Positions 3,559 through 58,600 are shown, counted from the stretch's first letter. The stretch: DNA of 64,000 nt from an uncultured bacterium (GCA_964523975.1 CAZGBM010000001.1:6116-70115), one strand, 5' to 3'. A program made the numbers and translations. Notes: generated from the letters alone by a model not told the origin.

Positions 3559-3595
3559 AGATATTTAAACAATTGACTTAATTCCATAGAATATG

Positions 3596-3815
3596 AAATA
3601 TTAAAAATTAAAAAGCAAAATGACAAATTAAAATGCAAAAACTAAAAATAAAAGGACGCAGTTGCTCGCAGATAAAAAAAGATTTTTGATTTGTTACTTT
3701 TCCCAAGAACCAACTACTAACTAATAATATATGATTCGTTATTTCTTTGCTTTTTGAATCATTTTTGAATTTTGATTTGTATTTTTCCATTTTGATATTT
3801 GATTTTTACATTTTT
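3596..3815. mobile_element. MITE-like internally deleted copy of the IVS-like element
   Basis: Arm 3596-3650 and inverted arm 3752-3812. The internal 60-aa ORF (3608-3790, minus) starts MEKYKSKFKN like the intact gene and then degenerates. Confidence 0.55.
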
Positions 3816-3879
3816 ACGGATTTGTATTTCCAAGCTGTTTATTTATTACTGCTTGACCCTTCTTTAAATAGCTCAAACT

Positions 3880-9741: not shown

Positions 9742-9745
9742 AATT

Positions 9746-10786
9746 CTATCCTCCTAAGTTACTTCTTATTAGTCGCGCTCTTAGAATATTTTCTTCTTTC
9801 TCATTATTCATATCTTCATTCAAAATATTCAGATGTCCGGGGAGAGCTTGAAAAAGCCATTTGTTCAAATCCATAATATTAATATCTCTTATAATGCCCA
9901 AACTCAACCCGAGCCTTACAGCCGACGTCAAATTTAAGAAATCGGTAACCGACAGAATACGCGCATTCTTAAGTATTCCATAAGATCTCCAGATTTTATC
10001 TTCCGTCTCATAGCCGACTTTTTGTGTTAAATATTCTCTGCTGCTAACTTCATTCTTCATTATACCTTTGATTTTATTCTCGAACAATTCCAATATTTCC
10101 TCTTCGGAAATACCCAGAGTAAATCTACTGTTTACTTTAAAATAACTTCCCTCCACGCTTTCCCCTATATTGAAAACGCCATCAATAGAGAAAAGAGAAT
10201 CCTCAAGATCATCGATAACTTCCACAAATTTACCTGTGATGACAAGAGCGGGAAGATGAACCACGGCAGAAACCACCATACCTGTTCCAACCTTATCGAC
10301 TGCAGAAGTAAGAAATCCTAATTCCTCATTATACGCAAAATTGAATTCCTCGTTAAGCTCGTCATCCAAATTATCGCATTGAACGAATGCCTCTTTGACG
10401 GATAATTCGGGAGATATAGAAGAAATTTCAAGATGTTCCTCCGAGTTCAAAACGAGTATATTGTTTTGCAAATCGTTTAAAGCCAAACCTAGAAACCTAC
10501 AATTACCTGCCTGATCTCGCGAAATGAAATTCCTCTCTACAAAGAATCTCTTCTCATTATCTTTCAGGTCTTTCAGCTGAATAACATTCTCGAAGGAAGA
10601 CGAGGTTGATATCCCTTCGATAAGTAAATCCAGAATTTCTTCTTTCTCTTTGTCCGAAGTCTTCTTGTTGAACTTATATCCTCCCAGGTTGCGGTACAGG
10701 GAAACTTTGGAAAACAGAACCATCTCCGAATAAGGACCAACCTTTTCCAGCCACACGGGAAGATGCTCTATCAGAGAATCAATCAT
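9746..10786 (-). CDS. mcsB: Protein arginine kinase McsB (phosphagen-kinase fold)
   Basis: 346 aa; resembles Bacillus McsB around EELGFLTSAVDKVGTGM...HLPALV and RSYGILKNARIL...RLGLSLGII. Confidence 0.75.
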   Translation of the reverse strand: MIDSLIEHLPVWLEKVGPYSEMVLFSKVSLYRNLGGYKFNKKTSDKEKEEILDLLIEGISTSSSFENVIQLKDLKDNEKRFFVERNFISRDQAGNCRFLGLALNDLQNNILVLNSEEHLEISSISPELSVKEAFVQCDNLDDELNEEFNFAYNEELGFLTSAVDKVGTGMVVSAVVHLPALVITGKFVEVIDDLEDSLFSIDGVFNIGESVEGSYFKVNSRFTLGISEEEILELFENKIKGIMKNEVSSREYLTQKVGYETEDKIWRSYGILKNARILSVTDFLNLTSAVRLGLSLGIIRDINIMDLNKWLFQALPGHLNILNEDMNNEKEENILRARLIRSNLGG

Positions 10787-11246
10787 TTTTTCCTCTTATG
10801 GATTTAAGTTCTTCTTTCCGTTCCTCAATTTTATCTCTTAGCTTCACAGCTTCTTCGAATTTTTCACCTTCAACGTAACTTTCAAGTTTCTTTTTCATTT
10901 CCAGGATTTCTTTTTTTACAATTAGAATCTTGCTGTTACTAACAGGCTCTTTTCCTTTGTGTAAAATTCCCAATTGCGATTCTTTAAGAAATATTTTAAT
11001 CTCGTCATTTAAAATCTTATAACATTCGACACACCCAAGACTACTGGAATCCTTATATTCGATAAAAGTAAGCCCGCAGTTCGGACATACTTTGTTTCTA
11101 TCCGCAAGAGTTTCCTCTTTGTTTTTTCCGTCAATACCCTTTTCTCTAGCACATTCCTCGCAAATATTTATCTCGCGAACTTTATCGGAATCCACTTCAT
11201 AATATTTATATTTCGCGTTATTTATTCCGCATAACTCGCATTTCAT
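10779..11246 (-). CDS. mcsA: McsA-like activator of McsB (CxxC zinc fingers plus UVR motif)
   Basis: 155 aa; CELC...CEEC and CPNC...CVEC zinc knuckles followed by a C-terminal UVR-like EEAVKLRDKIEERKEEL. Confidence 0.65.
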   Translation of the reverse strand: MKCELCGINNAKYKYYEVDSDKVREINICEECAREKGIDGKNKEETLADRNKVCPNCGLTFIEYKDSSSLGCVECYKILNDEIKIFLKESQLGILHKGKEPVSNSKILIVKKEILEMKKKLESYVEGEKFEEAVKLRDKIEERKEELKSIRGKND

Positions 11247-13142: not shown

Positions 13143-13189
13143 ACAATTTAGTATATTCTTTTTACTCCTTTGAGCAAGGGGGATGAAGA

Positions 13190-13400
13190 AAATCAAATAT
13201 CAAAAATCAAAATGACAAATAAAAATGTAAAATTATAAATCAAAACAAAAAAAGAGAAACAACGAATCACACAAATAGCACGAATAAAAACAAAAAAATT
13301 CTATTTTTTGTAAAAAATAACTATCGTTAATTCATTTGTGTAATTTGTGCTATTTGTTGTTAAAATAGGGGATGTTGGGGGATAAACAGAGAAATCTTTG
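13190..13400. repeat. Solo arm plus internal modules of the IVS-like repeat family
   Basis: Arm at 13190-13250; agaaacaacgaatcacacaaatagcacgaat and gtgtaatttgtgctatttgttgttaaaatagggg modules match the element at 2240-2505 in reverse orientation. Confidence 0.55.
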
Positions 13401-14481: not shown

Positions 14482-14699
14482 ATAACCTCCTGCTTTACAG
14501 TATTACCAATCAACTTTTTGTTCTTTTGCAAAAAAATATCTCATTTAGTTCTACCTTCCTTTCACGGTAAATAAAATATCAAAATTTAAAAAGCAAAATG
14601 ACAAATGAAAATGCAAAATTATCTCCTACCTTTCAGCGTTAAAACACTTGAAGCAAAAATTTTACTGATTTCATCCAATTCTCTTAAGAACCAACCAAC

Positions 14700-14990
14700 T
14701 TATTCTGGCATGGCTCTTTTAATATCTCCAAGCAGATTAATCCATAGTTTACTTTCATTAGTAGATTTAAGAGAATAATTGAAATAATTTGTAAAATCTC
14801 TCTTACTGCTTGCAGATTGACCTTCAACATAATTACCTAAGATACTTGTACCACTGCAAAGCAATTGATCTCCAAGTCTTTTAGACACATTATCTTTAGG
14901 TAAACCATCTAAAAACTCAATAAGCTTCAGGACAAAGTTGTACAACCTTTTTTTGTATTCATTTTTGAACTTTGATTTGTCATTTTCCAT
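14700..14990 (-). CDS. Four-helix-bundle protein (23S rRNA intervening-sequence protein family)
   Basis: 96 aa; family-typical length and composition; its start codon and first ~11 codons lie inside the dispersed 'arm' repeat. Confidence 0.65.
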   Translation of the reverse strand: MENDKSKFKNEYKKRLYNFVLKLIEFLDGLPKDNVSKRLGDQLLCSGTSILGNYVEGQSASSKRDFTNYFNYSLKSTNESKLWINLLGDIKRAMPE

Positions 14991-15035
14991 TTTGATATTT
15001 AATCTTTACATTTTAGCGGCTTTGCCACTTTATCA

Positions 15036-15064
15036 AATATATTTCTCTAAAACCGCTTGTCAAG
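15036..15064 (-). promoter_or_regulatory. Sigma70-type promoter (TTGACA-17-TATATT) for the four-helix-bundle gene
   Basis: Minus-strand reading cTTGACAagcggttttagagaaatATATTTgat, followed by the gcggcaaagccgc hairpin and the arm containing the ATG. Confidence 0.45.
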
Positions 15065-15073
15065 TGAAGTCGA

Positions 15074-17788
15074 CTAACGACTCTTATCCCCTGATTCCAT
15101 CTTCCCTTTTTCGGCTCTCATATCTTCCAGAACCTTATCCAGATTTTTATCACCAGGGAATCTATCTTTAACTCTCCGAGTTAACTCAATAGCACTTCCA
15201 ATATTATCTCTTCTTAAAAGCATAAAAACGTCGGAAAACACCTTGTTGTCTTCTAACAATTTATCAATTAGATTCTCCAACTTTTCTCCTTCGCCGGAAG
15301 CAACATACGTTTCCACAAGACCCTTATAAGCGAACAAATGCCATCCTTTCATGGGAAGTAATTTATTGAAATCATCTTCCGCAAGAGCCAACATATTTTT
15401 TGCTTCTTCTTTATGCTCCGTACTTCCTGCCTTCATTACAAGTAACTCACCCCGCAACAAACGAAGTCTCGGGACATCTTTTATCTTGAGAAACGAATTT
15501 GCAAATTGGAGACCATCATCGTAATCATTCAATTTTTTATAAATCAACTTCTGTGCCTCAATCAAATTAACAGCCAAACGTAAGAAAACTCCGTCATTCT
15601 CAGCATATATAAAAACTTTACTGTAAAGATTTTCGAGCATTTTAAGTGTATCCTCTGCAGGCCCTGTTGTCTTTCCAGATATCAAATTAGGGTAAATATC
15701 ATAGAAAACTTCATCACTAAAAGAAAACAATGTTATAGCAAGGTTCACCAGAGTCATAATTTGAGCTTCGCTTTCCAAATTAGCCCAGAAGTTATCATAA
15801 TAACTATATGCAAATTCGTTCAGGAAAAGATTCATTGTCTTTTCTCTATTACTCTTGAAACCAACTTTTTCTTTAACAAGTTTATAAGCAAGTCCTTCCT
15901 GTAACAAATGTTCGCTAAACGCATTACGATAATCGCCGGGAATAGGAGAGGAAAAATATATATTGATTGAAGGATTGAAATCTTCACTGTTTACATACTT
16001 TTCGACAAACAAATCCAATTTCATAAAGATATCTTCCAGGCTAGGTTTCTTCCCTATTGCGGAAAGGATTATTGATTTAACCGCCATATCCTTCAATTCG
16101 ACCATACCGCCATCTCTGAGGACCATTGCTCCGGGTATAGTGTCTATAATCCAATCCTCGAAATCCTTATTCGTTCTGCCCATCTGTTTTTCCTGTTTGT
16201 ACTCGTTCCAAAATCTTGTATGCATAAAAGGTGACGCAAAATCCATCGGGATACCCGATTCTTTAAGCTCTTTTATATACCACTTGGTATTCATAAGAGA
16301 GAAATTACCCAGCCTGACGCCTTTCTTTTTCTCCGGGTCGAATTTTCTGAAATCTTTAACCTCCTGCAGGAACCAGACCGGGAACGTATCGTTGTCTCCG
16401 TATGTAAAGAGAATGGAATTATCATCCGGACTAACCAGTAAATTATGAGCGTAATCATGAGCAATCCAGTTCCCTCTCCTGTTTGCGTGAGAATTTATGT
16501 TGCTAACAAAAGGAAGAAAACCAATGATGCCGGAGAGCATTACTGCACTCCACGCATAACGTGGAATTCTTTTCTTTATCCAACTCCATATCCAGTACAG
16601 ACCTATCGATACATACAACATAAAGAGGAAAAATGCCGGACCCCAGAAGTAATCCCTTTCCCTTGGTTCTCGAGGCTTGTGTGCAGGATTCGGGTCGGAC
16701 GGGGAAAACTCATGATTCAGATAAACAACCAACCCTAATGTCAAAATAATATACAGTATGAAGAACAACCAGAAAGACTCCTTATCTTTCTTAAAATGCA
16801 CCCACATCCCCCAGATTCCTATTGAAACATAAATACAGGTTCCGAATATCGATAGATACCGAAGCAAAATTCCGGTAGAAACTCTCGGATAAGGGAAAAA
16901 CTGCCATGAAAAATACTTAAAGAAAACTTTAAGCTGCTCGATAAAAGCAGGTATCACACCCAAGTGGGTTTCCCATGAGGTGTGCCTTGGCAATATATCC
17001 ATTTTACCATATTGCTTCCTCGAAAACACTTCCCATAATTTTGAAAAAGTGGTTGGGTCTACTTCATTAATGGCGGGGTTAGCGTGTGCTCTTATCATTA
17101 AAACCAGGTATGTAGAAACTCCAATCAAAACCAAAGCTGCCGACAAAGCAAGAAATTTCGTGCTCTTCAACATTTTCCAATCAACCAGGATTAAAAATAA
17201 TAAAACTCCCGGTATCAGTAACAATGGCTCTAAACTAATCCCGATTGATAAAGAAATCAAATATACCAATAAAAGTAAATAATTATTATCTCCTTCTTTA
17301 CGAATATTTTCGCTCCAGAGCAGGGTCAGCCACAATCCCAAGGTCACTATCAATATTGACGTTGCATATACTTCTGCTTCTACGGATGAATCCCAGACAC
17401 TAAAACATAACCCTGCTCCAATTGCGGAAAAAGCCGCAATCAAATGATTTCCCAAAGAATGTTCTTTGCCTTTATTCTCTTTGAAGCGGCCTATTACCTT
17501 CAGTATCACAAGATATAAAAAGGCTCCGGCTAAAGCTCCGGATAACGCAGAAATAAAATTTATTCTCTTTGCAACTTCATTGAATGGTAAAAGAATATCG
17601 AATATCCTGCCGAGCAATATATAAAAAGGCGTACCAGGAGGATGCGGTACTCCCAATATATGGGAACAGGCTATAAATTCTCCGCAATCCCACAGGGATA
17701 CGGTAGGAGCTATGGTATATGAATAAACACCAATCAAAACCGCAAAAACAAAAATAAAACACGATATCTTTACCTTATCAAAATTCAT
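15074..17788 (-). CDS. DUF2723/TMEM260-like polytopic membrane protein (glycosyltransferase-like N-terminus, C-terminal TPR-like region)
   Basis: 904 aa; N-terminal motif LWDCGEFIACSHILGVPHPPGTPFY and more than 10 TM helices. Confidence 0.65.
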   Translation of the reverse strand: MNFDKVKISCFIFVFAVLIGVYSYTIAPTVSLWDCGEFIACSHILGVPHPPGTPFYILLGRIFDILLPFNEVAKRINFISALSGALAGAFLYLVILKVIGRFKENKGKEHSLGNHLIAAFSAIGAGLCFSVWDSSVEAEVYATSILIVTLGLWLTLLWSENIRKEGDNNYLLLLVYLISLSIGISLEPLLLIPGVLLFLILVDWKMLKSTKFLALSAALVLIGVSTYLVLMIRAHANPAINEVDPTTFSKLWEVFSRKQYGKMDILPRHTSWETHLGVIPAFIEQLKVFFKYFSWQFFPYPRVSTGILLRYLSIFGTCIYVSIGIWGMWVHFKKDKESFWLFFILYIILTLGLVVYLNHEFSPSDPNPAHKPREPRERDYFWGPAFFLFMLYVSIGLYWIWSWIKKRIPRYAWSAVMLSGIIGFLPFVSNINSHANRRGNWIAHDYAHNLLVSPDDNSILFTYGDNDTFPVWFLQEVKDFRKFDPEKKKGVRLGNFSLMNTKWYIKELKESGIPMDFASPFMHTRFWNEYKQEKQMGRTNKDFEDWIIDTIPGAMVLRDGGMVELKDMAVKSIILSAIGKKPSLEDIFMKLDLFVEKYVNSEDFNPSINIYFSSPIPGDYRNAFSEHLLQEGLAYKLVKEKVGFKSNREKTMNLFLNEFAYSYYDNFWANLESEAQIMTLVNLAITLFSFSDEVFYDIYPNLISGKTTGPAEDTLKMLENLYSKVFIYAENDGVFLRLAVNLIEAQKLIYKKLNDYDDGLQFANSFLKIKDVPRLRLLRGELLVMKAGSTEHKEEAKNMLALAEDDFNKLLPMKGWHLFAYKGLVETYVASGEGEKLENLIDKLLEDNKVFSDVFMLLRRDNIGSAIELTRRVKDRFPGDKNLDKVLEDMRAEKGKMESGDKSR

Positions 17789-18096: not shown

Positions 18097-18335
18097 AATG
18101 GTGTGTGGGTTGGATTTTAAACCGCAAAATATCCTGTTTATCTTGTTAATCCCGTCTGATTGATTCTTCGAATCGGTTAAATAGTTGAATTGTCGAATGG
18201 TTGAATAGTAGCAACAAAAATTTTTTTATCCGTGACCATCCGTGTTAATCCGTGGCTAATTTCGGGGTTGTGGGTTGGGTTTTAAAGAACAAAAAATCTT
18301 GTGTTAATCTTGTGAAATCTCGTGATTAATTTTCC
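18097..18335. repeat. G-rich modular repeat region in the divergent intergenic region (two blocks)
   Basis: gtgtgtgggttggattttaaaccgcaaaatatcctgtttatcttgttaatcc and ccgtgttaatccgtggctaa...ggttgtgggttgggttttaaagaacaaaaaatcttgtgttaatcttgtg. Confidence 0.55.
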
Positions 18336-18337
18336 CC

Positions 18338-18365
18338 TTGACATCATACAAATATCATATATAAT
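18338..18365 (+). promoter_or_regulatory. Sigma70-type promoter TTGACA-16-TATAAT upstream of the RHH/PIN pair
   Basis: ccTTGACAtcatacaaatatcataTATAATatt; GGAGG at 18387-18391; TTG start at 18398. Confidence 0.5.
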
Positions 18366-18397
18366 ATTAATACATAAACTGTATATAGGAGGCAAAA

Positions 18398-18637
18398 TTG
18401 AAGAGTCAGGCTGTAAATATTTCGTTTAAAAAGGATTTACTAAAGAAGATTGATGACATCGCTAAAGAAGAATCCCGTACCAGGTCTGAACTGGTACGTG
18501 AAGCGGCAAGAATTTACATTGAGAGAAAGGAGGAATGGAGTAAGATTTTTTCTTACGGGGATATTCTTACTCGAGAAAAGCAACTCTCCGAAGAAGACTT
18601 GAAGAAAGAAATAGAAACTTACAGAAAAGAGAAGTAA
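18398..18637 (+). CDS. Ribbon-helix-helix (CopG/VapB-like) antitoxin, TTG start
   Basis: 79 aa; N-terminal RHH pattern (SFKKDLLKKIDDIAKEESRTRSELVREAARIYI); 1-nt gap to the PIN gene. Confidence 0.7.
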   Translation: MKSQAVNISFKKDLLKKIDDIAKEESRTRSELVREAARIYIERKEEWSKIFSYGDILTREKQLSEEDLKKEIETYRKEK

Positions 18638-18638
18638 T

Positions 18639-19043
18639 TTGTTCAAAGTTGTTTTTGACACCAATGTTTTAATTTCCGCCATTCTATTTGGTGGTTATCC
18701 CAGAAAATGTTTCGAGCTTGTAATTGAAGGGAAAATAGAATTATATATTTCCGAAGAAATCATAGGTGAATTTGAGGGAGTTTTAAAACGAGAAAAATTT
18801 GGCGTCGCCAAAGAAAATTTGCATTATATAGTTTCTTCTCTTAATTCATTTGCAAATTTCGTAAAACCTGAAACAAAATTAAATATAGTAAAAAAAGACC
18901 CCGAAGACAATAAATTTGTTGAATGTGCAATAGCAGCAGAAGCTGATTTTATCATATCCGGAGATACTCATTTGCTCGAGCTTTCCAAAATTCGAAAAAT
19001 AAAGATATTAAATCCAGCCGATTTTTTAAAGCATTATTTTTAA
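18639..19043 (+). CDS. PIN-domain toxin (VapC-like)
   Basis: 134 aa; VVFDTNVLISAILFGG...CAIAAEADFIISGDTHLL, acidic residues characteristic of the PIN fold. Confidence 0.75.
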   Translation: MFKVVFDTNVLISAILFGGYPRKCFELVIEGKIELYISEEIIGEFEGVLKREKFGVAKENLHYIVSSLNSFANFVKPETKLNIVKKDPEDNKFVECAIAAEADFIISGDTHLLELSKIRKIKILNPADFLKHYF

Positions 19044-19049
19044 CTAAAG

Positions 19050-19262
19050 TGATTTTAGATGTTAGGAAGTTAGGAGGCTAAAACAGAAAATAAAAGATTG
19101 GGCTTAGTTGAGCTTTGTGCTCTCTGTGCCTCCGCGGTTATGAGAATTTTTTTTATTAGTGTGTATCCGTGTTAATCCGTGGCTAACTCAGTGGTTTTGG
19201 GTTGGGTTTCGAATAACAAGAAAATCCTTTTTAATCTGCGTCTATCTGTGTACGATTCTTTT
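19050..19262. repeat. G-rich modular repeat region
   Basis: gttaggaagttaggagg, ctttgtgctctctgtgcctccgcgg and gtgtatccgtgttaatccgtggctaactcagtggttttgggttgggtttcgaataacaag modules shared with other loci. Confidence 0.55.
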
Positions 19263-19265
19263 TAA

Positions 19266-19338
19266 ATTTTGCATTTTTATTTGTCATTTTGCTTTTTGAT
19301 ATTTGATTTTTACTTTTAAGCGGCTTTGCCGCTTATCT
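19266..19338. repeat. Solo arm of the IVS-like family plus GC hairpin aagcggctttgccgctt
   Basis: tttgtcattttgctttttgatatttgatttttac then a 7-bp stem/3-nt loop hairpin whose 3' end overlaps the TAA stop of the 782-aa gene. Confidence 0.55.
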
Positions 19339-21681
19339 GCTCTCAACAAATCTCACAATTGATGCCGTAAAAATGAGTAATATGACAAACATAAGAAGAG
19401 GGTAATATAAATAAATCCTTAAAGATAAACAGACGAGTAGAACTACAGTCACAATCGCAAGAAGTCCACCGGGTCTTAAAGCAAGTTTGAACCATTTCGA
19501 TAACTTAACAAGCTCCTTCCATAGAGCCTCGAACAGAGGAATAAAAATCCGTCTCTTACGGATAAACACATAAATCAAAATCAAAACCAGTAGAATAACC
19601 AGAGCTTTTATTATTAAATCATTCACATAATTGAAGCCTAAAAATAAAGCTTCTTCTCTTTCTACAATCTTTTTCTCAAAAGAATACTTATTACCGGAAA
19701 CCGGAATATTGACTCTGACGGACAGTACCCCGGCTTCTCCTGTAGCGAATACCTTTGCCGATTTATCGAGTATTGCTTGAGGCATTGAAGGTGCAAGAAT
19801 TTCTTTTGTTGCCGAAATTCCTCTCATTTCTTCATCCTTAGCCTCCTCTTCAAAACCTTCTGTTTCCGTAGGCATAGCAGTCGGCATAACAACAGGAATA
19901 ATTTCTTCAATCTTCGGTTTGAGATTACCACTAAATTTCATATAAGTATAATCTACAGGCAAATATAGACTCCACTCGGCTTTGTTGATTAGAATATCCG
20001 TAGTCGGGAAGCAATGCTTCTTCTTACCCAATAGATTAAAACCTCCCATTTTTTCGGTGTAAATAAGTTCGATATCAAAAGGCGTAAGACTTCCATCCCC
20101 TCCCCTTTCCGAGCGGACAAGCGGAATCAGCACTTTACCATCATCATCTTTAGAAGCCTTTTCTCTTTTGCCGTTAACATAAACACTCCAGATACTCACG
20201 TCTTGCGGTAAACTTACCTTCAGGAACTGGTCCCACAGATTTTGCATCGTAAAGGTAACCTGATAAACCAGTTTGCCGTCTTCCGTAAGGAGGGTAATTC
20301 CCTTCGCCAAATCGATAAAAGAAGTAAGAGCCTCTTCTTTTTTGTATTTGGTAATACGAACAACCATACCAAAGGGATGTTTTACATATCTGAAAGCGAA
20401 AAGAATCGGTCTGGCAGAAAGATTGCTGAGCTGGTAAGGAATCTTCTGAAAATCAATTCTTTCAAGGTTATTAAATTCCTGAACTTCAGCTCCGGCATCG
20501 CTTTTTACTTCTCCCGCCACATACCCAGATTCTCTCACTGCTCCCAGAACTTCAAACCCTTCGAAATCCGCAATTATCGTTTCTTCCGGCAATAATTTTT
20601 CCGATTTTACAGTCACCACCTTCGTTCCTTCAAACATATATTCGAAAGACACATCAAGAAGCTGCCTTCCTTTTTCCTCCCTGCTACTCCACCCCGATAC
20701 CCCATCGCCGCTTACCTCGATAACCTGATAACCCTCAGGAACGATAAGCGAAAGCAAATTGATTTTATTCTGCATTACGTTCAACTCGACCATCGTGGTA
20801 ACGGTAATCGCGTCTGCCTCAATAGAAAGAAGATTGAAAACCTCAGAGTATATCCTGGCCGAACCTCTCACCACTTTCCCTTCCTCTTTCTTCCAGGAAA
20901 TACTTACATAAGAAGCAGGAGAAAGATAGCTTCTTATGACGGTATGGCCTTTTGTCTCTACGGTTTTCACTTCCTGGGCATTCCCGATATTAACCTCAAG
21001 ATAGGGCTTGGGGATATCAAGAGAAAGGTAAGTAATCGGTGTTTGTGGAATACTGAAATTCAAACCCGGACTCCCATTATCCGGCGACGAATTAAGGGAA
21101 AACTTTATACCGACCGAATGCCGACCAACCTCACTGGTAGACAAATAATGCCACCCTCCCTCGGTTATTATAGAAGCAGGCTTTCCGTCAAGTTTAACTT
21201 CCGATATAGCAAGATTTTCCCCGAAAAGAGGAATCTTCAAATAAGATTTCTGATGTTTATCGAAAATCTCCAGGTCGAGGAAAACGGTAAAATTCGTACT
21301 CTGACTTCCCATAACACCATTGTACGACGCTCTCGTAATAATATAATCCGCGGGAGGCTTAAGCTCCCCTCCCACGGGAGCTATCATCCTATCCACGAGT
21401 TTTTTAAATTCCTCTCTCGTAAGTACCACTTCCCCACCCTCGACCCTGTACTCGGGCTGGTAAGTGGCTCCTGTCTGTTCCATCAGTTTAGCGAACTCAT
21501 CCCAGGAAAGTTTTATCTCATCAACGTCAAGTTTCAAAAGAGAACGGAATTCATTCCAATCTATTGTTACTTTTGAATCCTTCGAATCATCAGCACGAAG
21601 GGCGAACCCAAAAGAGGTGCATAACAGAATCAAAGATAAGCTAATTAAAAAAATATGATTTCCTGTTCTTTTCTTTGTCAT
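19333..21681 (-). CDS. Large secreted protein with C-terminal triple-TM anchor, paralog A, function unknown
   Basis: 782 aa; signal peptide, duplicated (I/L)SW(D/E)EF..L motifs near the N-terminus, three C-terminal TM helices; paralogous to the upstream gene. Confidence 0.6.
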   Translation of the reverse strand: MTKKRTGNHIFLISLSLILLCTSFGFALRADDSKDSKVTIDWNEFRSLLKLDVDEIKLSWDEFAKLMEQTGATYQPEYRVEGGEVVLTREEFKKLVDRMIAPVGGELKPPADYIITRASYNGVMGSQSTNFTVFLDLEIFDKHQKSYLKIPLFGENLAISEVKLDGKPASIITEGGWHYLSTSEVGRHSVGIKFSLNSSPDNGSPGLNFSIPQTPITYLSLDIPKPYLEVNIGNAQEVKTVETKGHTVIRSYLSPASYVSISWKKEEGKVVRGSARIYSEVFNLLSIEADAITVTTMVELNVMQNKINLLSLIVPEGYQVIEVSGDGVSGWSSREEKGRQLLDVSFEYMFEGTKVVTVKSEKLLPEETIIADFEGFEVLGAVRESGYVAGEVKSDAGAEVQEFNNLERIDFQKIPYQLSNLSARPILFAFRYVKHPFGMVVRITKYKKEEALTSFIDLAKGITLLTEDGKLVYQVTFTMQNLWDQFLKVSLPQDVSIWSVYVNGKREKASKDDDGKVLIPLVRSERGGDGSLTPFDIELIYTEKMGGFNLLGKKKHCFPTTDILINKAEWSLYLPVDYTYMKFSGNLKPKIEEIIPVVMPTAMPTETEGFEEEAKDEEMRGISATKEILAPSMPQAILDKSAKVFATGEAGVLSVRVNIPVSGNKYSFEKKIVEREEALFLGFNYVNDLIIKALVILLVLILIYVFIRKRRIFIPLFEALWKELVKLSKWFKLALRPGGLLAIVTVVLLVCLSLRIYLYYPLLMFVILLIFTASIVRFVESR

Positions 21682-21691
21682 TTTGATGCTC

Positions 21692-24187
21692 CTATTTCGC
21701 CCTTGGGTTTTTTGTTTTTTTTGTTTTCTTCTTTCTCCTGGCTGGAGATTTAACCTTCCGTGCGGGTATCAAGTCGGGTCTTATCCAGGCAATCAAAAAG
21801 ACGAGAACAAAAATAACAAAAAGAAATTTCGAAAGGAAGAAGAAAATGAATGCCCCCAGAACGAGGAGACTCTTTATGCCGGCAGGAGTCTTTAATCTCA
21901 TCCAGAAGTCTTTATTGGAATAAAGACGATTTTTAAATTCAAGAAAGAGGACTCTTATTTTAATTCTAAGACGATAAATAAGGTAAAGAACGATAAGAAC
22001 TATAAGAATCTTGATTAAAGAATAAATCCATCCTCTGGTATATTGAAAAGTCAAGAACAACTGTTCATCTTCTATCACGGTTTTCGCAAAACGGTAAAGT
22101 TGTCCCGAGGTAGGAACTTCAATCTTAAAGAGAGCTACACTGGTTACTCCGCTTTCCCTGTCTCTTTTTAGATTTTCCGCAAAGCCGATTTCCTGCCTGA
22201 CCTGGTTCAAGAAATCAGCCTGCTCATTAGCCGAACTCAACCTGAAATTGCTCTTTAACTTACTCTGTGTTTGTTGTATTTTTTTATCTTCGATTTGCTT
22301 CGGCTCTTCCCAACTTTGAAGAGCTTGTTCGTATCCGCGAACCTCCTCATAGGTAAAAACTCTGCTTCCTCCGAACAAAGGACGAATCCCGGTGGCGATG
22401 TCTTCTTTTTCGACATTTCCTCCGAAATGGACGTAACGATATTCTAATGGCAGGTAACAGGACCATAGCATCTTACTTATCACTACATCAGCCTTGGGAA
22501 ACAATATAGTTTTCGAGCCGACAAGCGGCAATGAATTTTCCTTGTAATAAAAGAGAAATTCGACATCAAAGGATTCTATACTTTCACCCGATAAGCCTGA
22601 ACGGACAAGAGGTATCATAAATTTTCCTTCGTTGTTTTTGGAAGGAATTTCTCTTTTGCCATCAACATAAAGACTCCATATCTCAGCATCGGCGGGCAAG
22701 CTCAACTCCAGAAATTGCTTACCGGTATTACGCATAGTGTAAATAACCCTGCTTATAACCTTACCTTCCGGAAGTAAAACCGACATAACACTGGCATTAT
22801 CAATAACGGTATTGACCATTGGAAGTTCTTCGTGCTTCGTAACTTTCAAAGTCAGCGAGAACGGATGTCTTAAATATCGCAGTCCCAGGATTAAAGGCCT
22901 CGTGGACATATTCACCAGATCTAAAGGCAATTCCTGTATATCAACAACATCGATGTCTTTATTCCCGACAATCTCTGCTTCAGCCGCACTTTTCTTTTCG
23001 ATTCCGACAAAACCGGTTTCCCTGACGGACCCGAGAACTTCAAAACCATTGAAGTCTATCTCGTTACTCTTTTCCGTAAAGATCTTTTCAACTACTACAG
23101 TAAATACTACTGTACCTTCTTTTTCTCCTCCGAAAGGAACGGTTAAAACTTCTTTACCTTCAACTTCTTCCGTACTCCAGTCTCTTATTTCTTCGTAGTT
23201 TTGTCCCCTAACATATAAAACGCTATAGCCACGAGGAACAGATACTTTAATACCGGAAATCGAATTTTGCAGGACATCAAGTTTGAATCTTGCAGTAACC
23301 TGCAAAGCATTGTCCAGAACGGAAAGCAAATTCATAACCTCCGTATAAATTTTTGCGGGAACTTTCTTCTTCTCTTTCACGATAGTCCGGTGAACCTTTA
23401 AGGAAATATAAGAGGTTGTTGAAAGAACCGACCTGACACTTATATAGCCACCCCTGTTCAAAACGGTAATATATTTAGCCTCCGGTATCTCAACTTTGGC
23501 GTCAGGCACGGGAATATCAATATTAAATAACGTAATTGCGGTTTGTGGAATAGTAATACTCAAAACATCAGGACCTTTATCAAGTTCAGTTTTGACGGAG
23601 AATGAGAGCGTTACCTTATGCCGACCCAGTTTATCTGTTGCAAGGACATACCAGCCGTTTTCAGCCATCACTAAAGCAGGGTTACCATCTAACTCGATAT
23701 TTCTGAGCGCTACTCCCTGCGGTATAAGCTTAATCTTCGGATAATCTGTTCTACCTGTTTTGAATATTTCCAGGTCAAATGTGACGTTGAATGTGGTACT
23801 ATTCTGCTCCATAACACCGTTATATTCAGCTCTGGTTATAATATAATCACCTGGAGGAATAACCGGAGAAATATCCGGCTTCTTCATTTTATCAAGCAAT
23901 TCTTTAAACTGCTCCCTGCTCAAAACCACCATACCATTTTGTATACTGTATTCTATCTTGACCTCACTGCCGGTCTGTGCCAAAAGTTTTTTAAACTCAT
24001 CCCAGGAAAGCTTAATCTCGTCTGCGTCAATCTTTAAAAGTTCTTTGAATTCTTCCCAGCTTATTCTTACTTCGCTCGATTCTTTCTTGGGTTCAGCTTC
24101 CTCAGCATAAAGAGGTAACGCCGATAAGAGAGAAAAAAACAACAGAAAAACAGATGCAACATTTGTTAAACTCCTGAACTTTATCAT
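21692..24187 (-). CDS. Large secreted protein with C-terminal TM anchor and basic tail, paralog B, function unknown
   Basis: 831 aa; same architecture; shared blocks include ISWEEFKELLKIDADEIKLSWDEF, PLVRS...FD(I/V)E(L/F), YLP(V/L)(D/E)Y.Y. Lys/Arg-rich cytoplasmic tail. Confidence 0.6.
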   Translation of the reverse strand: MIKFRSLTNVASVFLLFFSLLSALPLYAEEAEPKKESSEVRISWEEFKELLKIDADEIKLSWDEFKKLLAQTGSEVKIEYSIQNGMVVLSREQFKELLDKMKKPDISPVIPPGDYIITRAEYNGVMEQNSTTFNVTFDLEIFKTGRTDYPKIKLIPQGVALRNIELDGNPALVMAENGWYVLATDKLGRHKVTLSFSVKTELDKGPDVLSITIPQTAITLFNIDIPVPDAKVEIPEAKYITVLNRGGYISVRSVLSTTSYISLKVHRTIVKEKKKVPAKIYTEVMNLLSVLDNALQVTARFKLDVLQNSISGIKVSVPRGYSVLYVRGQNYEEIRDWSTEEVEGKEVLTVPFGGEKEGTVVFTVVVEKIFTEKSNEIDFNGFEVLGSVRETGFVGIEKKSAAEAEIVGNKDIDVVDIQELPLDLVNMSTRPLILGLRYLRHPFSLTLKVTKHEELPMVNTVIDNASVMSVLLPEGKVISRVIYTMRNTGKQFLELSLPADAEIWSLYVDGKREIPSKNNEGKFMIPLVRSGLSGESIESFDVEFLFYYKENSLPLVGSKTILFPKADVVISKMLWSCYLPLEYRYVHFGGNVEKEDIATGIRPLFGGSRVFTYEEVRGYEQALQSWEEPKQIEDKKIQQTQSKLKSNFRLSSANEQADFLNQVRQEIGFAENLKRDRESGVTSVALFKIEVPTSGQLYRFAKTVIEDEQLFLTFQYTRGWIYSLIKILIVLIVLYLIYRLRIKIRVLFLEFKNRLYSNKDFWMRLKTPAGIKSLLVLGAFIFFFLSKFLFVIFVLVFLIAWIRPDLIPARKVKSPARRKKKTKKTKNPRAK

Positions 24188-24295
24188 TTACTCCTCCTTT
24201 ATATTAATATTTATAAAAATATTAGACAGGACTCCTCCCCATTCGTTCCATAAAAAATTAAGTTTTCCCACTTTTCTTTTAAAGTATAGAGATTT

Positions 24296-24480
24296 TAGCA
24301 CGTTATGTCAAGAAGTTAAAAGTCGCCCCCCCGCTTACCGCTTACGGCTAACAGCAGGAAAAAAATCACATGTAGGAAATGTAGGGATTTTATTTTTTGT
24401 TTTTAAGCAACACAATAAATCTTTTTTTAATCCGTGTTTATCTGTGTTCATCCGTGGCTATTTCCTTTTTATCTATTCGT
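24296..24480. repeat. Composite repeat region (modules shared with both repeat families)
   Basis: taatccgtgtttatctgtgttcatccgtggcta. The block ttcgtgctattcgcctacctcataaggaagaatgactgtatcggggtg matches 56340-56390. acatgtaggaaatgtaggg matches 18070-18095 in reverse complement. Confidence 0.5.
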
Positions 24481-32340: not shown

Positions 32341-35300
32341 ATGAAAATTTTATGTAAGAAAGAGGTGATATTTCTTTTCTTTTTCGCATTAATTGCCTCA
32401 GCCGGCGTCATACAAAAAGAATTAACTTTTGATAAAAACGACATTTCTTTTGCCAAAATTGACAAGTACGACTTTATAAGATTAAAAGGATGCGAGTCGA
32501 CTGTAGAGACAGGGGCTCCTTCTCTTCCGAGAGCATCTTTTTCTCTTTTAATTCCTCAGGGTGCGGAGGTTATAGATGTTGAGGTTATTTCCGTCGATAA
32601 AGAAGTAATTAGCGGAGAATATGATATTTATCCAACTCAACATCCTCAGCCTTTCATAAAAGGTAAAGTCTTCCCATTTGTTGAACCTGACAAGAATATT
32701 TACACTCAGGCTACCCCATATCCCGAAAAAATTATCGAGTCTTCTCACACCGGCTCAATGAGCGGCTATAGACTTGCAAGTTTACTGATTTATCCAATAC
32801 AATATATACCTAAAGATAAGCAGTTGATTTTCTATTCGAGAATAAAGTTCAGGGTTACATACAAAGAGAACGTACGTTCGTTGAATACGAAAACAGAGAA
32901 ACAAAAAATGATATTTGAAGAAAGAGTCAAAAAATTAGTCCTCAATCCCGAAGATATCGGAATGTCCGAGCCTTCCGTCGGACTTAGCGGAAGTCTGGCA
33001 TTACTTTCGGATACGGTGGAATATGTGATAGTAACCACATCTTCGCTCAAAGAACCTTTCCAGGAACTTGCGGACTGGAAAACGAAGAAAGGGATTCCTG
33101 CGAGGGTTGTAACTCTTGATTCCATCTATGCGAATTATTCAGGTGTAGATAATGCCGAAAAGGTAAGGAATTTCATAATCGATGCTAATTCATCCTGGGG
33201 AACAATCTGGGTTCTTCTCGGCGGGCAATGCGACTATGAATGGGGACAGGAAATCGTTCCGAGAAGGAATGTCTGGTATGTAACCTCAGGTGGTGGAAAT
33301 TATAACGATGAAGATACCATTCCATCGGACCTTTATTTCTCCGACCTTGACGGGAACTGGAATGCGGACGGAGATGGTGTATTTGGTGAATCAACCGACG
33401 ACGTTGACTTCTATTCGGACGTGTTCGTGGGAAGAGCTCCTGTTCGAACTTTAGCTCAGGCAGAAATTTTTGTTAATAAGGTTCTCACTTACGAAAAAAA
33501 TCCTCCCAGTGGTTATCAAAAAAAGATACTTCTGCCTGCAGCCTATCTATGGCCATTTATATACGATGAGAGGACCTCACAGGAGGCAATTTCCAATATA
33601 GTTCCTTCGGACTGGCAGGTTACAAAGATGTACGAGCGGGACGGAAATTTAATCCACTCGACTTTTGTTGATTCGGTTCGCGCGGGATTCGGGTTCGCTC
33701 ATCTCATAGGACACGGCAACGAGTATGGTGTTTATACTTATTACGCCGATGCTTATATTAATTCCGATGACATGGATGCTCTTGGTAATGGCGATTTGCT
33801 TGGTATTCATAACTCTATAGCCTGTATGTCCGGCGGGCTTGACCTTGTGCCTGACGGAGACTGCTTTGCAGAACATTATCTGACTCCAAGTACAGGCGGA
33901 AGTTTCTCCATTATGAATTCAAGGTATGGCTGGGGACAACCCCCAAATATGGGACCTTCGGAGCATATCGACACCTGTTTCTACCATGAAATATTCAGAG
34001 AAAATTATCTTTATCATGACCATATTGGTGTAGCACACGCCTTTTCGAAAGACGGCTACGTACCTCAAGTTACCTGGTCATCTCTCTGGCCGTGGTGCAT
34101 TTATGAGTTAAATCTATTCGGAGACCCGGAAATGCCTTTATGGACGGATACTCCTGCTAAATTAACCGTAACTCATGACTTCGTAATACCCGTTGGCGGC
34201 AGCAGCTTTGCTGTGAATGTTACAGATGGTGGCTCAGGTGTAGAAGACGCGCTTGTTTGTTTATATAAAGAGGGAGAAGTATATGAAAGAGGATACACCG
34301 ATGCTTCAGGTAATCTTACCTTAACTCTATCTCCGCCTCCCGCTTCTCTCGGTTTAATGTGCTGTACGGTTACAAAAAGCAATTACCTTCCCTACGAAGA
34401 TAGTGTGGATGTTATTTCTCCTTTTGGTCCCTGGGTTATTTTTGATAGTTATTCAGTATTGGACATATCCGGAAATAATGATGGCAATGTTGACCCAGGA
34501 GAGAATATTAAGTTGTGGCTGATAGTACATAATGTAGGTCTTGATACTGCTTATAGTATCACGGGTATTTTGCGAACGACTGATTCTTATGTCATCATTG
34601 CTGACTCAATGGAAGGATTCGGAGATATCCCGCCCGATTCATTCTTGAGCAGCTTAGAGGACTTTGACTTTGATGTGGCACTGGAATGTCCGGCAAACCA
34701 TGTTATTACTTTTGAGCTCGTTGTTAGAGATATAAACGATAGTACCTGGGTTAGTTGTTTTTCTGTGCCTATATCAACGCCAGATATAACCGTTTCTGCC
34801 GACACCATAATTTTCGATACAGTATTTGTAGATTATTCTGATACATTGGAACTTCTGGTAAATAATATTGGTAGAGATACCTTAGTTATAAGTGATATTA
34901 CATCTGACAATATCGATTATTCCATTGATATTACTGGCTTTAATTTACCCCCAAATGAAAGTCAACCAGTAAGGGTGATATTTGCTCCGGCTTCTGAAGG
35001 TAGCTCCACTGGTAATCTGACTGTTGCGAGTAACGATTTAGATGAACCCAGCTTAACAGTCTTCTTACGGGGAGAAGGTTTAGAGCCGCCTGATATATCT
35101 TTTTCACCCGATTCCGTGAGTGATAGTTTATTTGCAGGTGAAACGACTACCCATACTTTAACGATTTATAACACGGGAGAAAGTGAACTTAATTTTGATA
35201 TATCGATTATGGAATTACTATCAACAACAAAAGCACCAAATATAAGTTTTAAAGTCACCGAATTCAAAAGCAATAAAATAGCAATACCTGACGAGAATTC

Positions 35301-56292: not shown

Positions 56293-56415
56293 TCATTTAG
56301 TCTGTTGGCCTGTAGAAAAACTACACCAATAAATTTTGATTCGTGTTATTCGCCTGCCCCGTAAAGAAGAATGAGTGTATCGGGGTGCAATTCGTTGTTT
56401 CTTCGTTTCTTTGAA

Positions 56416-56488
56416 TTCCTTTTTGGATTCTGATATATCATTTTACATTTTGATATTTGATTTTTACTTTCTAGCGGCTCTGCCGCTT
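56416..56488. repeat. Solo arm plus hairpin of the IVS-like family
   Basis: ttttggattctgatatatcattttacattttgatatttgatttttac followed by tagcggctctgccgctta. Confidence 0.55.
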
Positions 56489-56494
56489 ACCCGC

Positions 56495-56523
56495 TTGACA
56501 TTCCCCCGCTTTCAGCATATACT
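56495..56523 (+). promoter_or_regulatory. Sigma70-type promoter TTGACA-17-TATACT
   Basis: cTTGACAttcccccgctttcagcaTATACTataaatacAGGAGGtaaaaATG upstream of the 99-aa ORF. Confidence 0.45.
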
Positions 56524-56842: not shown

Positions 56843-56911
56843 GTAGTATAAATGAATGAAAAAGCTAATCCCTATAATTCTATTTATCCTCTTCTGCACC
56901 TCTATTTTTTA

Positions 56912-56968
56912 AATTCATTTTTGAACTTTGATTTGTAATTTTACATTTTGCTATTTGATTTTTAAATT
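56912..56968. repeat. Solo arm of the IVS-like family
   Basis: ttcatttttgaactttgatttgtaattttacattttgctatttgatttttaaatttcag. Confidence 0.5.
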
Positions 56969-57083
56969 TCAGAAGTTTCCCTCTATCCAATTATAAATTG
57001 CTAATAAACGGTCGTGAATATGTAGAGTAGTATAAACTTATATTGTATTGACTTATAACCTCAATTTAATTATTATAGTATAT

Positions 57084-58289: not shown

Positions 58290-58497
58290 TGTTGTTTTTC
58301 ACCACACCACCCATTTTTTAACAACAAATTGCACAAATTTCACAAATAAATTTGAGAATAGTCAGTATCTGTTTTTTAAATATTCGTGCTATTCGTGTTA
58401 TTTGTTGTTTCTCTTTTTTTTAATTCCTTTTTGAATTTTGATTTGTAATTTTGCATTTTGCTATTTGATTTTTGAATTTCAGTGGCTTTGCCGTGCT
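58290..58497. repeat. Internal modules plus solo arm plus imperfect hairpin of the IVS-like family
   Basis: caccacaccacccattttttaacaacaaattgcacaaatttcac...attcgtgctattcgtgttatttgttgtttct...ttgaattttgatttgtaattttgcattttgctatttgatttttg...cagtggctttgccgtgctg. Confidence 0.55.
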
Positions 58498-58600
58498 GAG
58501 TTCTTTCTACCTTCTGTAGTTAAAGAATGCGGCAGGATACACTTTTAGGCTCTTGACAATAAATTACTTCTATTTATTTTCCATTATATATGGAGGAACA

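Follow-up and report, generated by a model that had tools for sequence, protein, structure and literature searches.

The window, a 64,000-nucleotide stretch of DNA from an uncultured bacterium, contains two adjacent minus-strand genes, A and B, with the lengths and the 10-bp gap given in the first-pass annotation (Table 1). The AGGAG ribosome-binding site of B overlaps the TAG stop codon of A and, because of this overlap and the short gap, we regard A and B as an operon with coupled translation. Gene A has a strong ribosome-binding site of its own (AAGGAGGAG, 4–5 nt 5′ of the ATG), and the promoter-like site upstream of it is a candidate by consensus match only. The two proteins are paralogs with a common architecture, as had been proposed (BLASTP, 38% identity over ~790 aa, E = 7e-168). 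Full-length orthologs share 36–93% identity overall and 73–93% in the case of A, and the B-type orthologs (P0076–P0100) form a separate clade in the tree. At least 90% conservation in both types was found at 111 positions, whereas 15 conserved positions are type-specific, mostly through conservative changes. A and B are real genes under constraint.

Table 1. Features of the A/B locus and its surroundings, in window coordinates.
Feature	Position	Strand	Remarks
TMEM260-like (DUF2723) GT-C glycosyltransferase	15074-17788	minus	904 aa; Pfam PF11028, E 2e-43
VapBC-type cassette (RHH + PIN)	18218-19237	plus	Pfam RHH_1, PIN_3; context, not part of the system
Dispersed AT-rich heptad-like repeat copy	19255-19335		Ends in hairpin AAGCGGCTTTGCCGCTT, overlapping the B stop codon
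Gene B	19333-21681	minus	782 aa; downstream B-type unit (ORF call)
B membrane anchor (predicted)	19336-19614	minus	About residues 690-782; hydropathy segments 679-716 and 731-782
Gene A	21692-24187	minus	831 aa; upstream A-type unit (ORF call)
A poly-Lys/Arg C-terminal tail	21695-21763	minus	Residues 809-831; 23 aa, net +13
A membrane anchor (predicted)	21782-22033	minus	Residues 719-802; TM1, basic amphipathic loop, ~35-40-aa hydrophobic hairpin
Juxtamembrane beta-hairpin	22034-22123	minus	A residues 689-718; PTSGQLYRFAKT motif
Tandem beta-sandwich module (predicted)	22388-23374	minus	A residues 272-600; ribophorin I/Ost1-like fold; AF2 pLDDT 89
Duplicated strand-helix motif	23978-24064	minus	A residues 42-70; ISWEEF...LSWDEF, small N-terminal alpha/beta domain
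A signal peptide (predicted)	24104-24187	minus	Residues 1-28, ...ALPLYA then EE; hydropathy heuristic
Sigma-70-like promoter candidate	24283-24311	minus	TTGACA-17-TATACT; 11/12 consensus match, ~95 nt upstream of A start

The A/B genes are surrounded by genes for a topoisomerase, ParAB, ClpC-McsAB, a Lol-like ABC system and UvrC. This context is a housekeeping chromosome and not the accessory, repeat-bounded setting originally suggested: the neighbours are housekeeping genes, the A/B family is broad (see below), and VapBC and the repeats either were inserted secondarily or occur genome-wide. The VapBC-like pair named as a neighbour was confirmed by its Pfam matches. It occupies the spacer that separates B from the TMEM260-like gene, with a 93-nt direct repeat at each end (18218-18310 and 19145-19237). 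The corresponding spacer in relatives measures 170–315 bp and lacks VapBC, which is absent from every relative's locus except one from the same contig; the cassette is thus an insertion at this site. Repeat copies do lie on both sides of the A/B pair, as had been noted, but the 93-nt repeats bracket VapBC and not A/B. The GC hairpin described at the stop of the distal gene is also present; it is an 8-bp, GC-cored structure (ΔG −11.7 kcal/mol, z −3.6) overlapping the B stop codon. The repeat to which it belongs is intergenic and recurs at least 10 more times in the window. An alignment shows the same hairpin in three copies, and the TMEM260-like gene is likewise followed by it. With no U-tract on either strand and its membership of a dispersed repeat, we rejected the hairpin as a canonical terminator. 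An Rfam scan of the window returned no matches.

Gene A encodes a signal peptide followed by the duplicated motif, the beta-sandwich ectodomain, a helical linker, the juxtamembrane hairpin, three predicted transmembrane (TM) passes and a basic tail. Gene B follows the same layout, but its helical linker is variable and the basic tail is absent. Hydrophobic, signal-like N-terminal segments and hydrophobic C-terminal clusters were recognised in both proteins, as first described, using a Kyte-Doolittle hydropathy heuristic together with an argument from fusion linkers given below. In the AF2 model of A, a helix at residues 2–21 is followed by a disordered stretch, and the equivalent N-terminal helix of B is kept as a TM segment in natural fusions. 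The duplicated SW(D/E)EF motif reported near the N-terminus was recovered as two copies of (I/L)(S/D)W(D/E/N)EF exactly 18 residues apart. It is kept in most A-type and B-type orthologs and in single-copy members too, with W44, E46, F47, L60, E64 and F65 near-invariant.

The ectodomain comprises ~690 aa of beta-sandwich in both A and B, and the AF2 model of full-length A (mean pLDDT 80) agrees with the long beta-rich ectodomain predicted earlier. The first sub-domain of its tandem module (residues ~285–420) is duplicated again in giant relatives, and one relative carries a LysM insertion within the ectodomain. The PLVRS and YLP.(D/E)Y blocks pointed out in the first reading are near-invariant in the family alignment (P526, L527, R529 and S530; Y578 and P580). 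A further conservation peak falls in the juxtamembrane hairpin, where P692 is invariant and G695, F700 and K702 are near-invariant. In the AF2 model, its strands (694–705 and 711–718) run straight into TM1, and the anchor helices span residues 719–757, 768–785 and 787–802. The invariant residues of the family are proline, arginine, glycine and aromatic residues, and they look structural. The poly-Lys/Arg tail had been assigned to the distal 782-aa gene; it actually belongs to the upstream 831-aa gene, whereas B ends one residue beyond its last TM segment. Among the relatives, a basic tail (+7 to +13) is restricted to the A-type members of the closest clade.

Natural fusions of the two units, such as the 1,754-aa protein P0106, are informative for topology. 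Their linkers contain, in order, TM1, a basic loop, a hydrophobic hairpin, a basic stretch equivalent to the A tail, a fossil signal peptide retained as a TM segment, and the second ectodomain. Based on this order, both ectodomains would lie on one side of the membrane, the basic tail would be cytoplasmic, and the A anchor would make three TM passes. The genome encodes a T9SS-sorted cargo protein, which indicates a diderm organism, and in such an organism the C-terminal TM anchors would place the ectodomains in the periplasm. The LysM insertion in the ectodomain of one relative also speaks for this location.

An exhaustive search with the family profile returned 8,322 cluster representatives (50% identity clusters), and members were seen in WOR-3, TA06, Aminicenantes/Acidobacteriota, Verrucomicrobiota, Elusimicrobiota, KSB1 and others. 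Judging from this search, A and B belong to a large unannotated bacterial family, here from uncultivated diderm phyla. Pfam and NCBIfam scans of A and B gave no family or enzymatic match, and a Pfam scan of 57 members and 6 giant relatives detected nothing beyond CarboxypepD_reg or LysM insertions, which are incidental and confined to single members. A PDB sequence search with the family profile yielded chance matches only (eIF3b, E = 0.04), every named relative is a “hypothetical protein”, and our literature search found neither a description of the A/B family nor a characterised member. These results uphold the earlier statement that no enzymatic motif is recognisable; likewise, the profile searches assign no characterised family. 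The description of a duplicated, membrane-tethered, large extracytoplasmic pair of unknown type is retained. We propose a family characterised by a signal peptide, the xSWxEF repeat, a ~690-aa ectodomain and a TM cluster, occurring as a tandem pair or fused double; A and B show all of these features, as well as the PLVRS and YLPxEY blocks and the PTSGQLYRFAK juxtamembrane hairpin.

A genome scan that used A-type sequences only as queries identified 54 non-redundant loci, among them 28 with a tandem pair, 6 with one fused ORF and about 16 with a single copy. The cassette is thus syntenic elsewhere (28 tandem and 6 fused among the 54 loci), so that neither of the two outcomes named beforehand as refuting the first reading, assignment to a known family or lack of synteny, was observed. 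In all 28 pairs A precedes B on the same strand, with gaps mostly between −11 and +45 bp. Furthermore, 82 of the 149 top family representatives are at least 1,400 aa long, and those examined consist of two ectodomain-plus-TM units. In a crude neighbour-joining tree (one module, BLOSUM distances, without support values), the A and B clades are old and the N- and C-terminal halves of other fusions pair within lineages. This suggests that the doubling arose several times independently, although gene conversion could mimic independent duplications in such a tree. The two-unit organisation, tandem or fused, points to a dimer, which here would be an A/B heterodimer. Pairing is not universal, with about 16 of the 54 loci single-copy; these loci could be explained by homodimers.

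The same data could be read as showing independent tandem paralogs with parallel, non-interacting roles, such as periplasmic binding or structural envelope proteins of different specificities. Tandem duplication alone would explain the adjacency, the type-specific positions are few and conservative, and single-copy lineages exist. This explanation nevertheless seems rather unlikely to us, since the A-then-B order is fixed and the coupling tight or overlapping across phyla, and since fusion into a single polypeptide, typical of obligate partners, is frequent and possibly repeated.

Comparison of the AF2 models with the PDB by Foldseek placed ribophorin I (RPN1)/Ost1 in the top 8 ranks, whether the full-length model or the module model was the query (E = 6e-10 to 2e-6). 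Ribophorin I/Ost1 is a non-catalytic subunit of oligosaccharyltransferase (OST) in eukaryotes and TACK/Asgard archaea. For the module alone, these matches (E = 4e-9 to 2e-6, 325–346 aligned columns) spanned its whole length. Two consecutive non-cytoplasmic beta-sandwich domains followed by a C-terminal TM helix, as in RPN1/Ost1, are present in A/B by this comparison, but the match is weak globally (TM-scores 0.16–0.37, RMSD around 17 Å) and its weight is limited by how common beta-sandwich tandems are. The Pfam Ribophorin_I model (PF04597) matched neither A nor B (E ≤ 1) nor any of the 57 members (E ≤ 0.1). Similarly, hhalign of the family against a human and yeast RPN1/Ost1 profile gave a probability of 0.35%, and against a 17-sequence ribophorin profile 0.14–0.22%; the ribophorin profile is shallow, covering vertebrates and Saccharomyces only, and the bait is 100% identical to 6s7o_E. 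The likeness to ribophorin I appears to be one of fold only, not of sequence. It extends to the signal peptide, the tandem beta-sandwich non-cytoplasmic ectodomain, the C-terminal TM anchor and the absence of catalytic residues, and in one clade the gene neighbour of A/B is a GT-C enzyme. In contrast, A and B are bacterial and roughly double the size; they have additional beta-sandwiches and, at the N-terminus, an additional alpha/beta domain, and they occur as a paralog pair or fused double with no STT3/PglB nearby. Their anchors are predicted to make three TM passes instead of one. The cytosolic four-helix bundle by which Ost1 binds the ribosome (PMC11417166) has no counterpart in A, with its 23-aa basic tail, or in B, with its single residue.

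We considered whether A and B could be genuinely homologous to ribophorin I/Ost1, though highly diverged, and so form a bacterial branch of the superfamily whatever their current partner. In favour of this, both models rank RPN1/Ost1 first with both sub-domains in the same order, Foldseek E-values are about 100–1000 times better than for the next fold class, A/B and RPN1/Ost1 alike have the N-terminus outside and the TM anchor at the C-terminus, and the best local hhalign pairing sets the family YLPxEY strand on the invariant LPEGA strand of ribophorin. Against it stand the hhalign probabilities, obtained with the shallow ribophorin profile, the 0 of 57 Pfam matches, the low TM-scores and the report of OST1 only from eukaryotes and TACK/Asgard archaea (PMC11417166). 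On this evidence we judge such homology improbable.

The next Foldseek matches were to M1 aminopeptidase/leukotriene A4 hydrolase (LTA4H) N-domains, integrin alpha legs and PIGT. The M1 N-terminal beta-domain covers one module half (~200–245 columns, E = 1e-5 to 1e-4) and is a non-catalytic accessory domain; A and B have no peptidase domain or HEXXH motif. The thigh and calf legs of integrin alpha (E about 1e-6) also form a beta-sandwich chain ending in a TM anchor, and the alpha/beta heterodimer recalls the pairing proposed here for A and B in that two chains are membrane-anchored. The A/B partners, however, are paralogs, the resemblance is architectural only, and no Pfam match to the FG-GAP beta-propeller or the VWA/I-domain of integrin heads was found in A, B or the 57 members. 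PIGT, a non-catalytic subunit of GPI transamidase with a lumenal beta-sandwich and C-terminal TM anchor, gave a weak match (E = 7e-5, TMq 0.22); it is eukaryotic and has no sequence similarity to A/B. BatD, DUF2207 and DUF4139/MuiA-like proteins also combine a signal peptide, an extracytoplasmic beta-sandwich and C-terminal TM helices. Their Pfam models gave nothing significant against A, B and the 57 members, with a single DUF2207 match in one member at E = 0.062, and A/B lack the Bat-operon (MoxR/vWA) context of BatD.

In 10 loci, one of them that of the window, the gene immediately downstream of B is a same-strand TMEM260-like GT-C, and the A proteins of these loci are 73–100% identical (closest clade only). 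We regard the enzyme as a possible partner of A/B. Unbiased clustering of 592 neighbouring ORFs identified no family conserved beyond single clades apart from the paralog, the loci of three giant fused relatives had nothing in common, and no STT3/PglB was found near any of the loci. A tricorn/S41-like protease and ClpC, each present at 4 loci, were rejected as partners and attributed to synteny of related genomes or housekeeping coincidence. As no neighbour other than the paralog recurs throughout the family, A/B appear self-contained.

If A and B were nevertheless ribophorin-like accessory subunits of the adjacent GT-C, the three would make up a periplasmic machine of several subunits for protein glycosylation, comparable to the eukaryotic/archaeal OST with Ost1. 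Their best PDB fold match is to an accessory subunit of a GT-C enzyme, and the adjacency holds in 10 of 10 close-clade loci; in the window it has survived the insertion of VapBC, whereas the flank upstream has been replaced. In addition, bacteria have distant homologs of human TMEM260, which is a protein O-mannosyltransferase (PMC10214176). However, this adjacency counts as a single evolutionary observation because all loci that show it belong to one clade (A at least 73% identical) in which both flanks are syntenic by descent; the GT-C neighbour is found at 0 of the 44 other loci, and the spacer after B tolerates a 1-kb opposite-strand insertion. Adding the missing sequence-level relation to ribophorin I and the missing Ost1-type bundle, we find this proposal doubtful at best. 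Its most specific form, in which a ribophorin-I-like A/B heterodimer docks on the GT-C in the cytoplasmic membrane and presents nascent or extended periplasmic polypeptides, is more doubtful still; if true, the ribophorin-type accessory subunit would be an ancient prokaryotic invention and not an archaeal/eukaryotic one, and oligosaccharyltransferase in bacteria is regarded as one polypeptide (PMC11417166). It is also quite improbable that A and B are substrates of the GT-C, that is, membrane-anchored periplasmic glycoproteins with O-glycosylated beta-sandwich domains. The same synteny and the action of human TMEM260 on the beta-sandwich IPT domains of membrane receptors (PMC10214176) would fit, but the synteny is clade-restricted, A and B show no sign of glycosylation, and in humans the sequon is a feature of IPT domains alone.

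Scarcely credible, and largely refuted, is the view of A/B as the periplasmic or accessory part of the HlyD/ABC-2 exporter, or as part of a mobile defence or barrier island with VapBC: the exporter named in the first-pass annotation, here resolved into HlyD, an ABC ATPase and two ABC-2 permeases, does adjoin on the same strand and VapBC and repeats are nearby, but this adjacency occurs only in this genome (the window and its own contig), relatives have an asparaginase and a CarboxypepD_reg-like gene or unrelated genes upstream of A, the 600-bp gap between exporter and A holds the promoter-like candidate of A, neither A and B nor VapBC nor the GT-C matched a PADLOC model (E ≤ 0.01), PHROGs gave no match for A or B, and the VapBC distribution and housekeeping surroundings speak against an island. 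Of the categories first suggested, envelope is still the best general one; a barrier role finds no support in PADLOC or PHROGs, and adhesion is unlikely because the C-terminal TM anchor of a diderm protein would keep the ectodomains in the periplasm.

Our tentatively favoured reading is a self-contained envelope protein with A and B as its two subunits, likely a non-catalytic periplasmic scaffold. Both proteins would be made from one transcript by coupled translation, exported by the Sec pathway and held in the cytoplasmic membrane by their C-terminal clusters of three TM passes. Each would project its ~690-aa beta-sandwich chain into the periplasm, where the A and B chains would pair side by side; single-copy relatives would be homodimers and fused relatives pseudo-dimers within one chain. 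At the core of the complex would lie the tandem beta-sandwich module, which has no catalytic signature and whose best structural match is ribophorin I/Ost1, with PIGT among the weaker ones; these two properties suggest that the complex probably acts as a scaffold or holder. Its most likely task would be to position a partner enzyme, or polypeptides or glycans in extended form, on the outer side of the cytoplasmic membrane. A scaffold is the default reading for a protein lacking a catalytic motif; the proteins may instead have an active site of a new kind, or the six TM passes that a dimer would have may serve in transport.

If our reading is right, a large diderm family of 8,322 clusters (50% identity) has no Pfam or NCBIfam entry, and it deserves a Pfam/InterPro one. 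The two-unit organisation gives a concrete, testable structural hypothesis, and experiments could start from fused forms in phyla that are easier to work with. With low probability, the ribophorin I fold and the one-clade GT-C neighbour might mean that bacterial accessory subunits of lipid-linked glycosyltransferase complexes exist. On the favoured reading, the membrane-anchored periplasmic hetero- or pseudo-dimer would represent a new building block of the diderm envelope.

A and B, the adjacent paralogs on the minus strand, are separated by 10 bp and share 38% identity across ~790 residues (BLASTP E 7e-168), and their coordinates, lengths, spacing and paralogy agree with the first-pass annotation. 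According to a hydropathy heuristic only, both carry a signal-like N-terminal segment and two C-terminal hydrophobic regions, the second spanning 43–52 residues. Most A-type, B-type and single-copy relatives keep two copies of an (I/L)(S/D)W(D/E/N)EF motif, spaced by exactly 18 residues, and across 57 diverse homologs the PLVRS and YLPxEY blocks hardly vary. The poly-Lys/Arg tail, previously assigned to B, is located on A; among A-type genes it is confined to the closest clade. The paralogs differ consistently at the sequence level: the helical linker (residues 601–680) is conserved in A-type genes and variable in B-type genes, and 15 conserved positions are type-specific. Upstream of A lie a strong RBS (AAGGAGGAG) and, at ~95 nt, a promoter-like TTGACA-17-TATACT site. 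The AGGAG of B overlaps the TAG stop of A; with these signals the pair looks like a separate, translationally coupled transcription unit.

Features of the window and of related loci (L-numbers, from the genome scan)
Feature	Position	Strand	Description
Gene A	21692–24187	-	ORF, 831 aa
Gene B	19333–21681	-	ORF, 782 aa
TMEM260-like gene	15074–17788	-	DUF2723 GT-C glycosyltransferase
RHH/PIN (VapBC-type) cassette with bracketing 93-nt direct repeats	18218–19237		In the B-to-TMEM260-like spacer
93-nt direct repeats	18218–18310, 19145–19237		
Dispersed AT-rich element	19255–19335, 14951–15041, 56409–56499, 58417–58507, 2243–2306, 2442–2532, 3572–3698, 3751–3841, 13165–13251, 14545–14632, 56894–56984		
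Gingipain-like protein	32341–39237	+	2,298 aa; Peptidase_C25 with propeptide, T9SS C-terminal sorting domain
ClpC-like AAA+, McsB-type ATP:guanido phosphotransferase (arginine kinase), UVR-motif McsA-like	7288–11246	-	Consecutive genes
935-aa ORF	43860–46667	-	No Pfam match at E ≤ 1e-4; unrelated to A/B family
Tricorn/S41-like protein	L032 15098–18340; L057 3158–6496; L044 2–1099; L043 6407–7171		By eye

Profile HMM searches assigned neither protein to a characterised family, with no match in Pfam, NCBIfam, PADLOC or PHROGs, and the family profile found nothing credible among PDB sequences. A word-indexed search returned 105 relatives from WOR-3 and similar MAGs, all "hypothetical", which divide into A-type (~830 aa) and B-type (~785 aa) proteins. 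An exhaustive profile search yielded 8,322 cluster representatives at E ≤ 1e-3 (2,823 of them at E ≤ 1e-30); named examples belong to Verrucomicrobiota and Acidobacteriota and are likewise all hypothetical. The genome scan added Stahlbacteria, TA06, FCPU426, Aminicenantes, Elusimicrobiota, KSB1, Delongbacteria, Cloacimonadota and Thermoanaerobaculia. By these searches it is a very large family that matches no known one, and no membership test that we ran placed it in a known kind.

The two-gene cassette recurs in related genomes: 28 of 54 non-redundant loci carry A then B on the same strand, mostly with gaps of -11 to +45 bp, and 6 encode a single fused ORF (~1,760–1,790 aa where complete). 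About 16 loci hold a single copy and 4 were uninformative. Giant relatives (1,400–2,600 aa) are likewise doubles: each consists of two successive units, an ectodomain followed by a TM cluster, and has one sub-domain (profile positions ~285–420) in additional copies. Of the 149 top representatives, 82 are 1,400 aa or longer. A crude NJ tree built from the conserved module places A-type and B-type proteins in old, separate clades, Aminicenantes pairs included; in other fused proteins the N-half and C-half group together within lineages. This within-lineage pairing suggests that doubling and fusion of the units occurred repeatedly. On such Rosetta-stone-type evidence, together with the tandem and fused doubles, we read the working unit as a dimer, which in the window would be an A/B heterodimer.

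The fusions also bear on topology. Between ectodomain 1 and ectodomain 2 their linkers carry, in order, TM1, then a basic loop and a hydrophobic hairpin of ~40 aa, then a K/R-rich stretch, and last a hydrophobic helix bearing an AxA-type site; several apparently independent fusions share this pattern. The K/R-rich stretch is the counterpart of A's basic tail and the helix that of B's signal peptide. This "fossil" signal peptide, an internal hydrophobic helix retaining the cleavage-like AxA-type site, was seen in fusions L047, L048, L049, L053, L054 and L055 and in fused proteins P0106, P0118, P0126 and P0223; cleavage there, if it occurs, would restore two chains. The only arrangement consistent with the linker order would place both ectodomains outside and the basic tail in the cytoplasm, each unit crossing the membrane three times. 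The gingipain-like protein, which contains many HYDIN/ASH-type Ig domains, carries a T9SS sorting domain that marks the organism as a diderm with type IX secretion, so the A/B ectodomains should be periplasmic. A LysM insertion in the ectodomain of one relative (P0152, residues 475–523) would fit a site near peptidoglycan. CarboxypepD_reg insertions occur in the ectodomains of P0102 and P0189, and 8 loci of the close WOR-3 clade have a separate 406-aa CarboxypepD_reg-like gene immediately upstream of A.

The AF2 model of A (mean pLDDT 80) is composed of a small N-terminal alpha/beta domain, a beta-sandwich chain (residues 115–590) and a C-terminal part with the helical linker, a juxtamembrane hairpin and TM helices. 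The isolated module, a tandem beta-sandwich (residues 272–600), reached pLDDT 89. For both models the best eight Foldseek/PDB matches were ribophorin I/Ost1 from human and yeast OST (E 6e-10 to 3e-7 for full-length A; 4e-9 to 2e-6 for the module, spanning it entirely), followed by M1 aminopeptidase/LTA4H N-domains, integrin alpha legs, mu-adaptin domains and PIGT. Since TM-scores were low (0.16–0.37), the modelled A resembles ribophorin I/Ost1 in fold and architecture only. Structure prediction, proposed as a check in the first-pass annotation, returned a ribophorin-like fold, but direct tests gave no sign of sequence homology: when authentic RPN1 and Ost1 sequences from the PDB, extended to a 17-sequence profile, were compared with the family profiles, hhalign probabilities were 0.1–0.4%, and Pfam Ribophorin_I matched zero family members. 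A and B also lack the cytosolic ribosome-binding bundle of Ost1. These results do not support placing A and B in the ribophorin I family. The best hhalign local pairing, non-significant (E 0.3–0.4), aligns A residues 564–595 with human RPN1 359–390 and sets the near-invariant YLPxEY strand on the invariant LPEGA strand of ribophorin I, close to where the second beta-sandwich ends. By reasonable analogy, A and B may work like a ribophorin-type non-catalytic, membrane-tethered subunit.

In the 10 closest loci (A 73–100% identity), the next gene after B on its own strand is the TMEM260-like one. Human TMEM260 is a protein O-mannosyltransferase that has distant homologs in bacteria (PMC10214176). 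Because this adjacency occurs in a single clade, where synteny of the flanks reflects descent, we take the GT-C neighbour as a lead, not as evidence of a functional link. A bacterial OST-like complex, joining the ribophorin-like fold of A/B to this GT-C neighbour, strikes us as very improbable; OST1-type subunits are reported only in eukaryotes and TACK/Asgard archaea, and bacterial OST is described as a single chain (PMC11417166).

Besides the paralog and this GT-C adjacency, no conserved neighbours were found across the family. The pair is surrounded by housekeeping genes, contrary to the accessory, repeat-bounded context described earlier, and a link to the exporter is not supported; the ABC-2/HlyD adjacency is confined to this genome. 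The ClpC/McsB/McsA row, here in a WOR-3-type genome, is an arrangement known chiefly from Firmicutes. In L043, L046 (both labelled Aminicenantes) and L057, too, a ClpC homolog is found no more than a few kb from a family gene, probably by coincidence. A ~1,080-aa protein that by eye resembles a tricorn/S41-type periplasmic protease adjoins a family gene in three of four loci and lies ~2.7 kb away in L043; as three of the four come from related genomes, independent cases are too few to call it a partner.

The hairpin reported at B's stop codon is present, but it is the end part of a dispersed repeat with at least 10 other copies in the window, and no U-tract accompanies it; the same hairpin lies 3' of the TMEM260-like gene. 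The repeat is intergenic and AT-rich, is built of degenerate ATTTTG-type heptads (consensus ...TTTTTGAATTTTGATTTGTCATTTTGCATTTTGATATTTGATTTTT...), occurs in both orientations and has no Rfam match. The hairpin AGCGGCTTTGCCGCTT terminates three copies, of which two sit directly after the stop codons of B and of the TMEM260-like gene. The 93-nt direct repeats are 77–81% identical, each with ATCCGTGTTAATCCGTGGCTAA. In related genomes the B-to-TMEM260-like spacer measures 170–315 bp and holds no such cassette; the VapBC-type cassette appears to be a small insertion that the repeat either carries or targets.

The earlier view of an envelope protein pair of unknown type is supported by the lack of a known family and by the two-unit organisation. 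In our best explanation, a tentative one somewhat short of an even chance, A and B would form a self-contained hetero- or pseudo-dimer, anchored in the membrane with its ectodomains in the periplasm, that may serve as a non-catalytic scaffold or holder.
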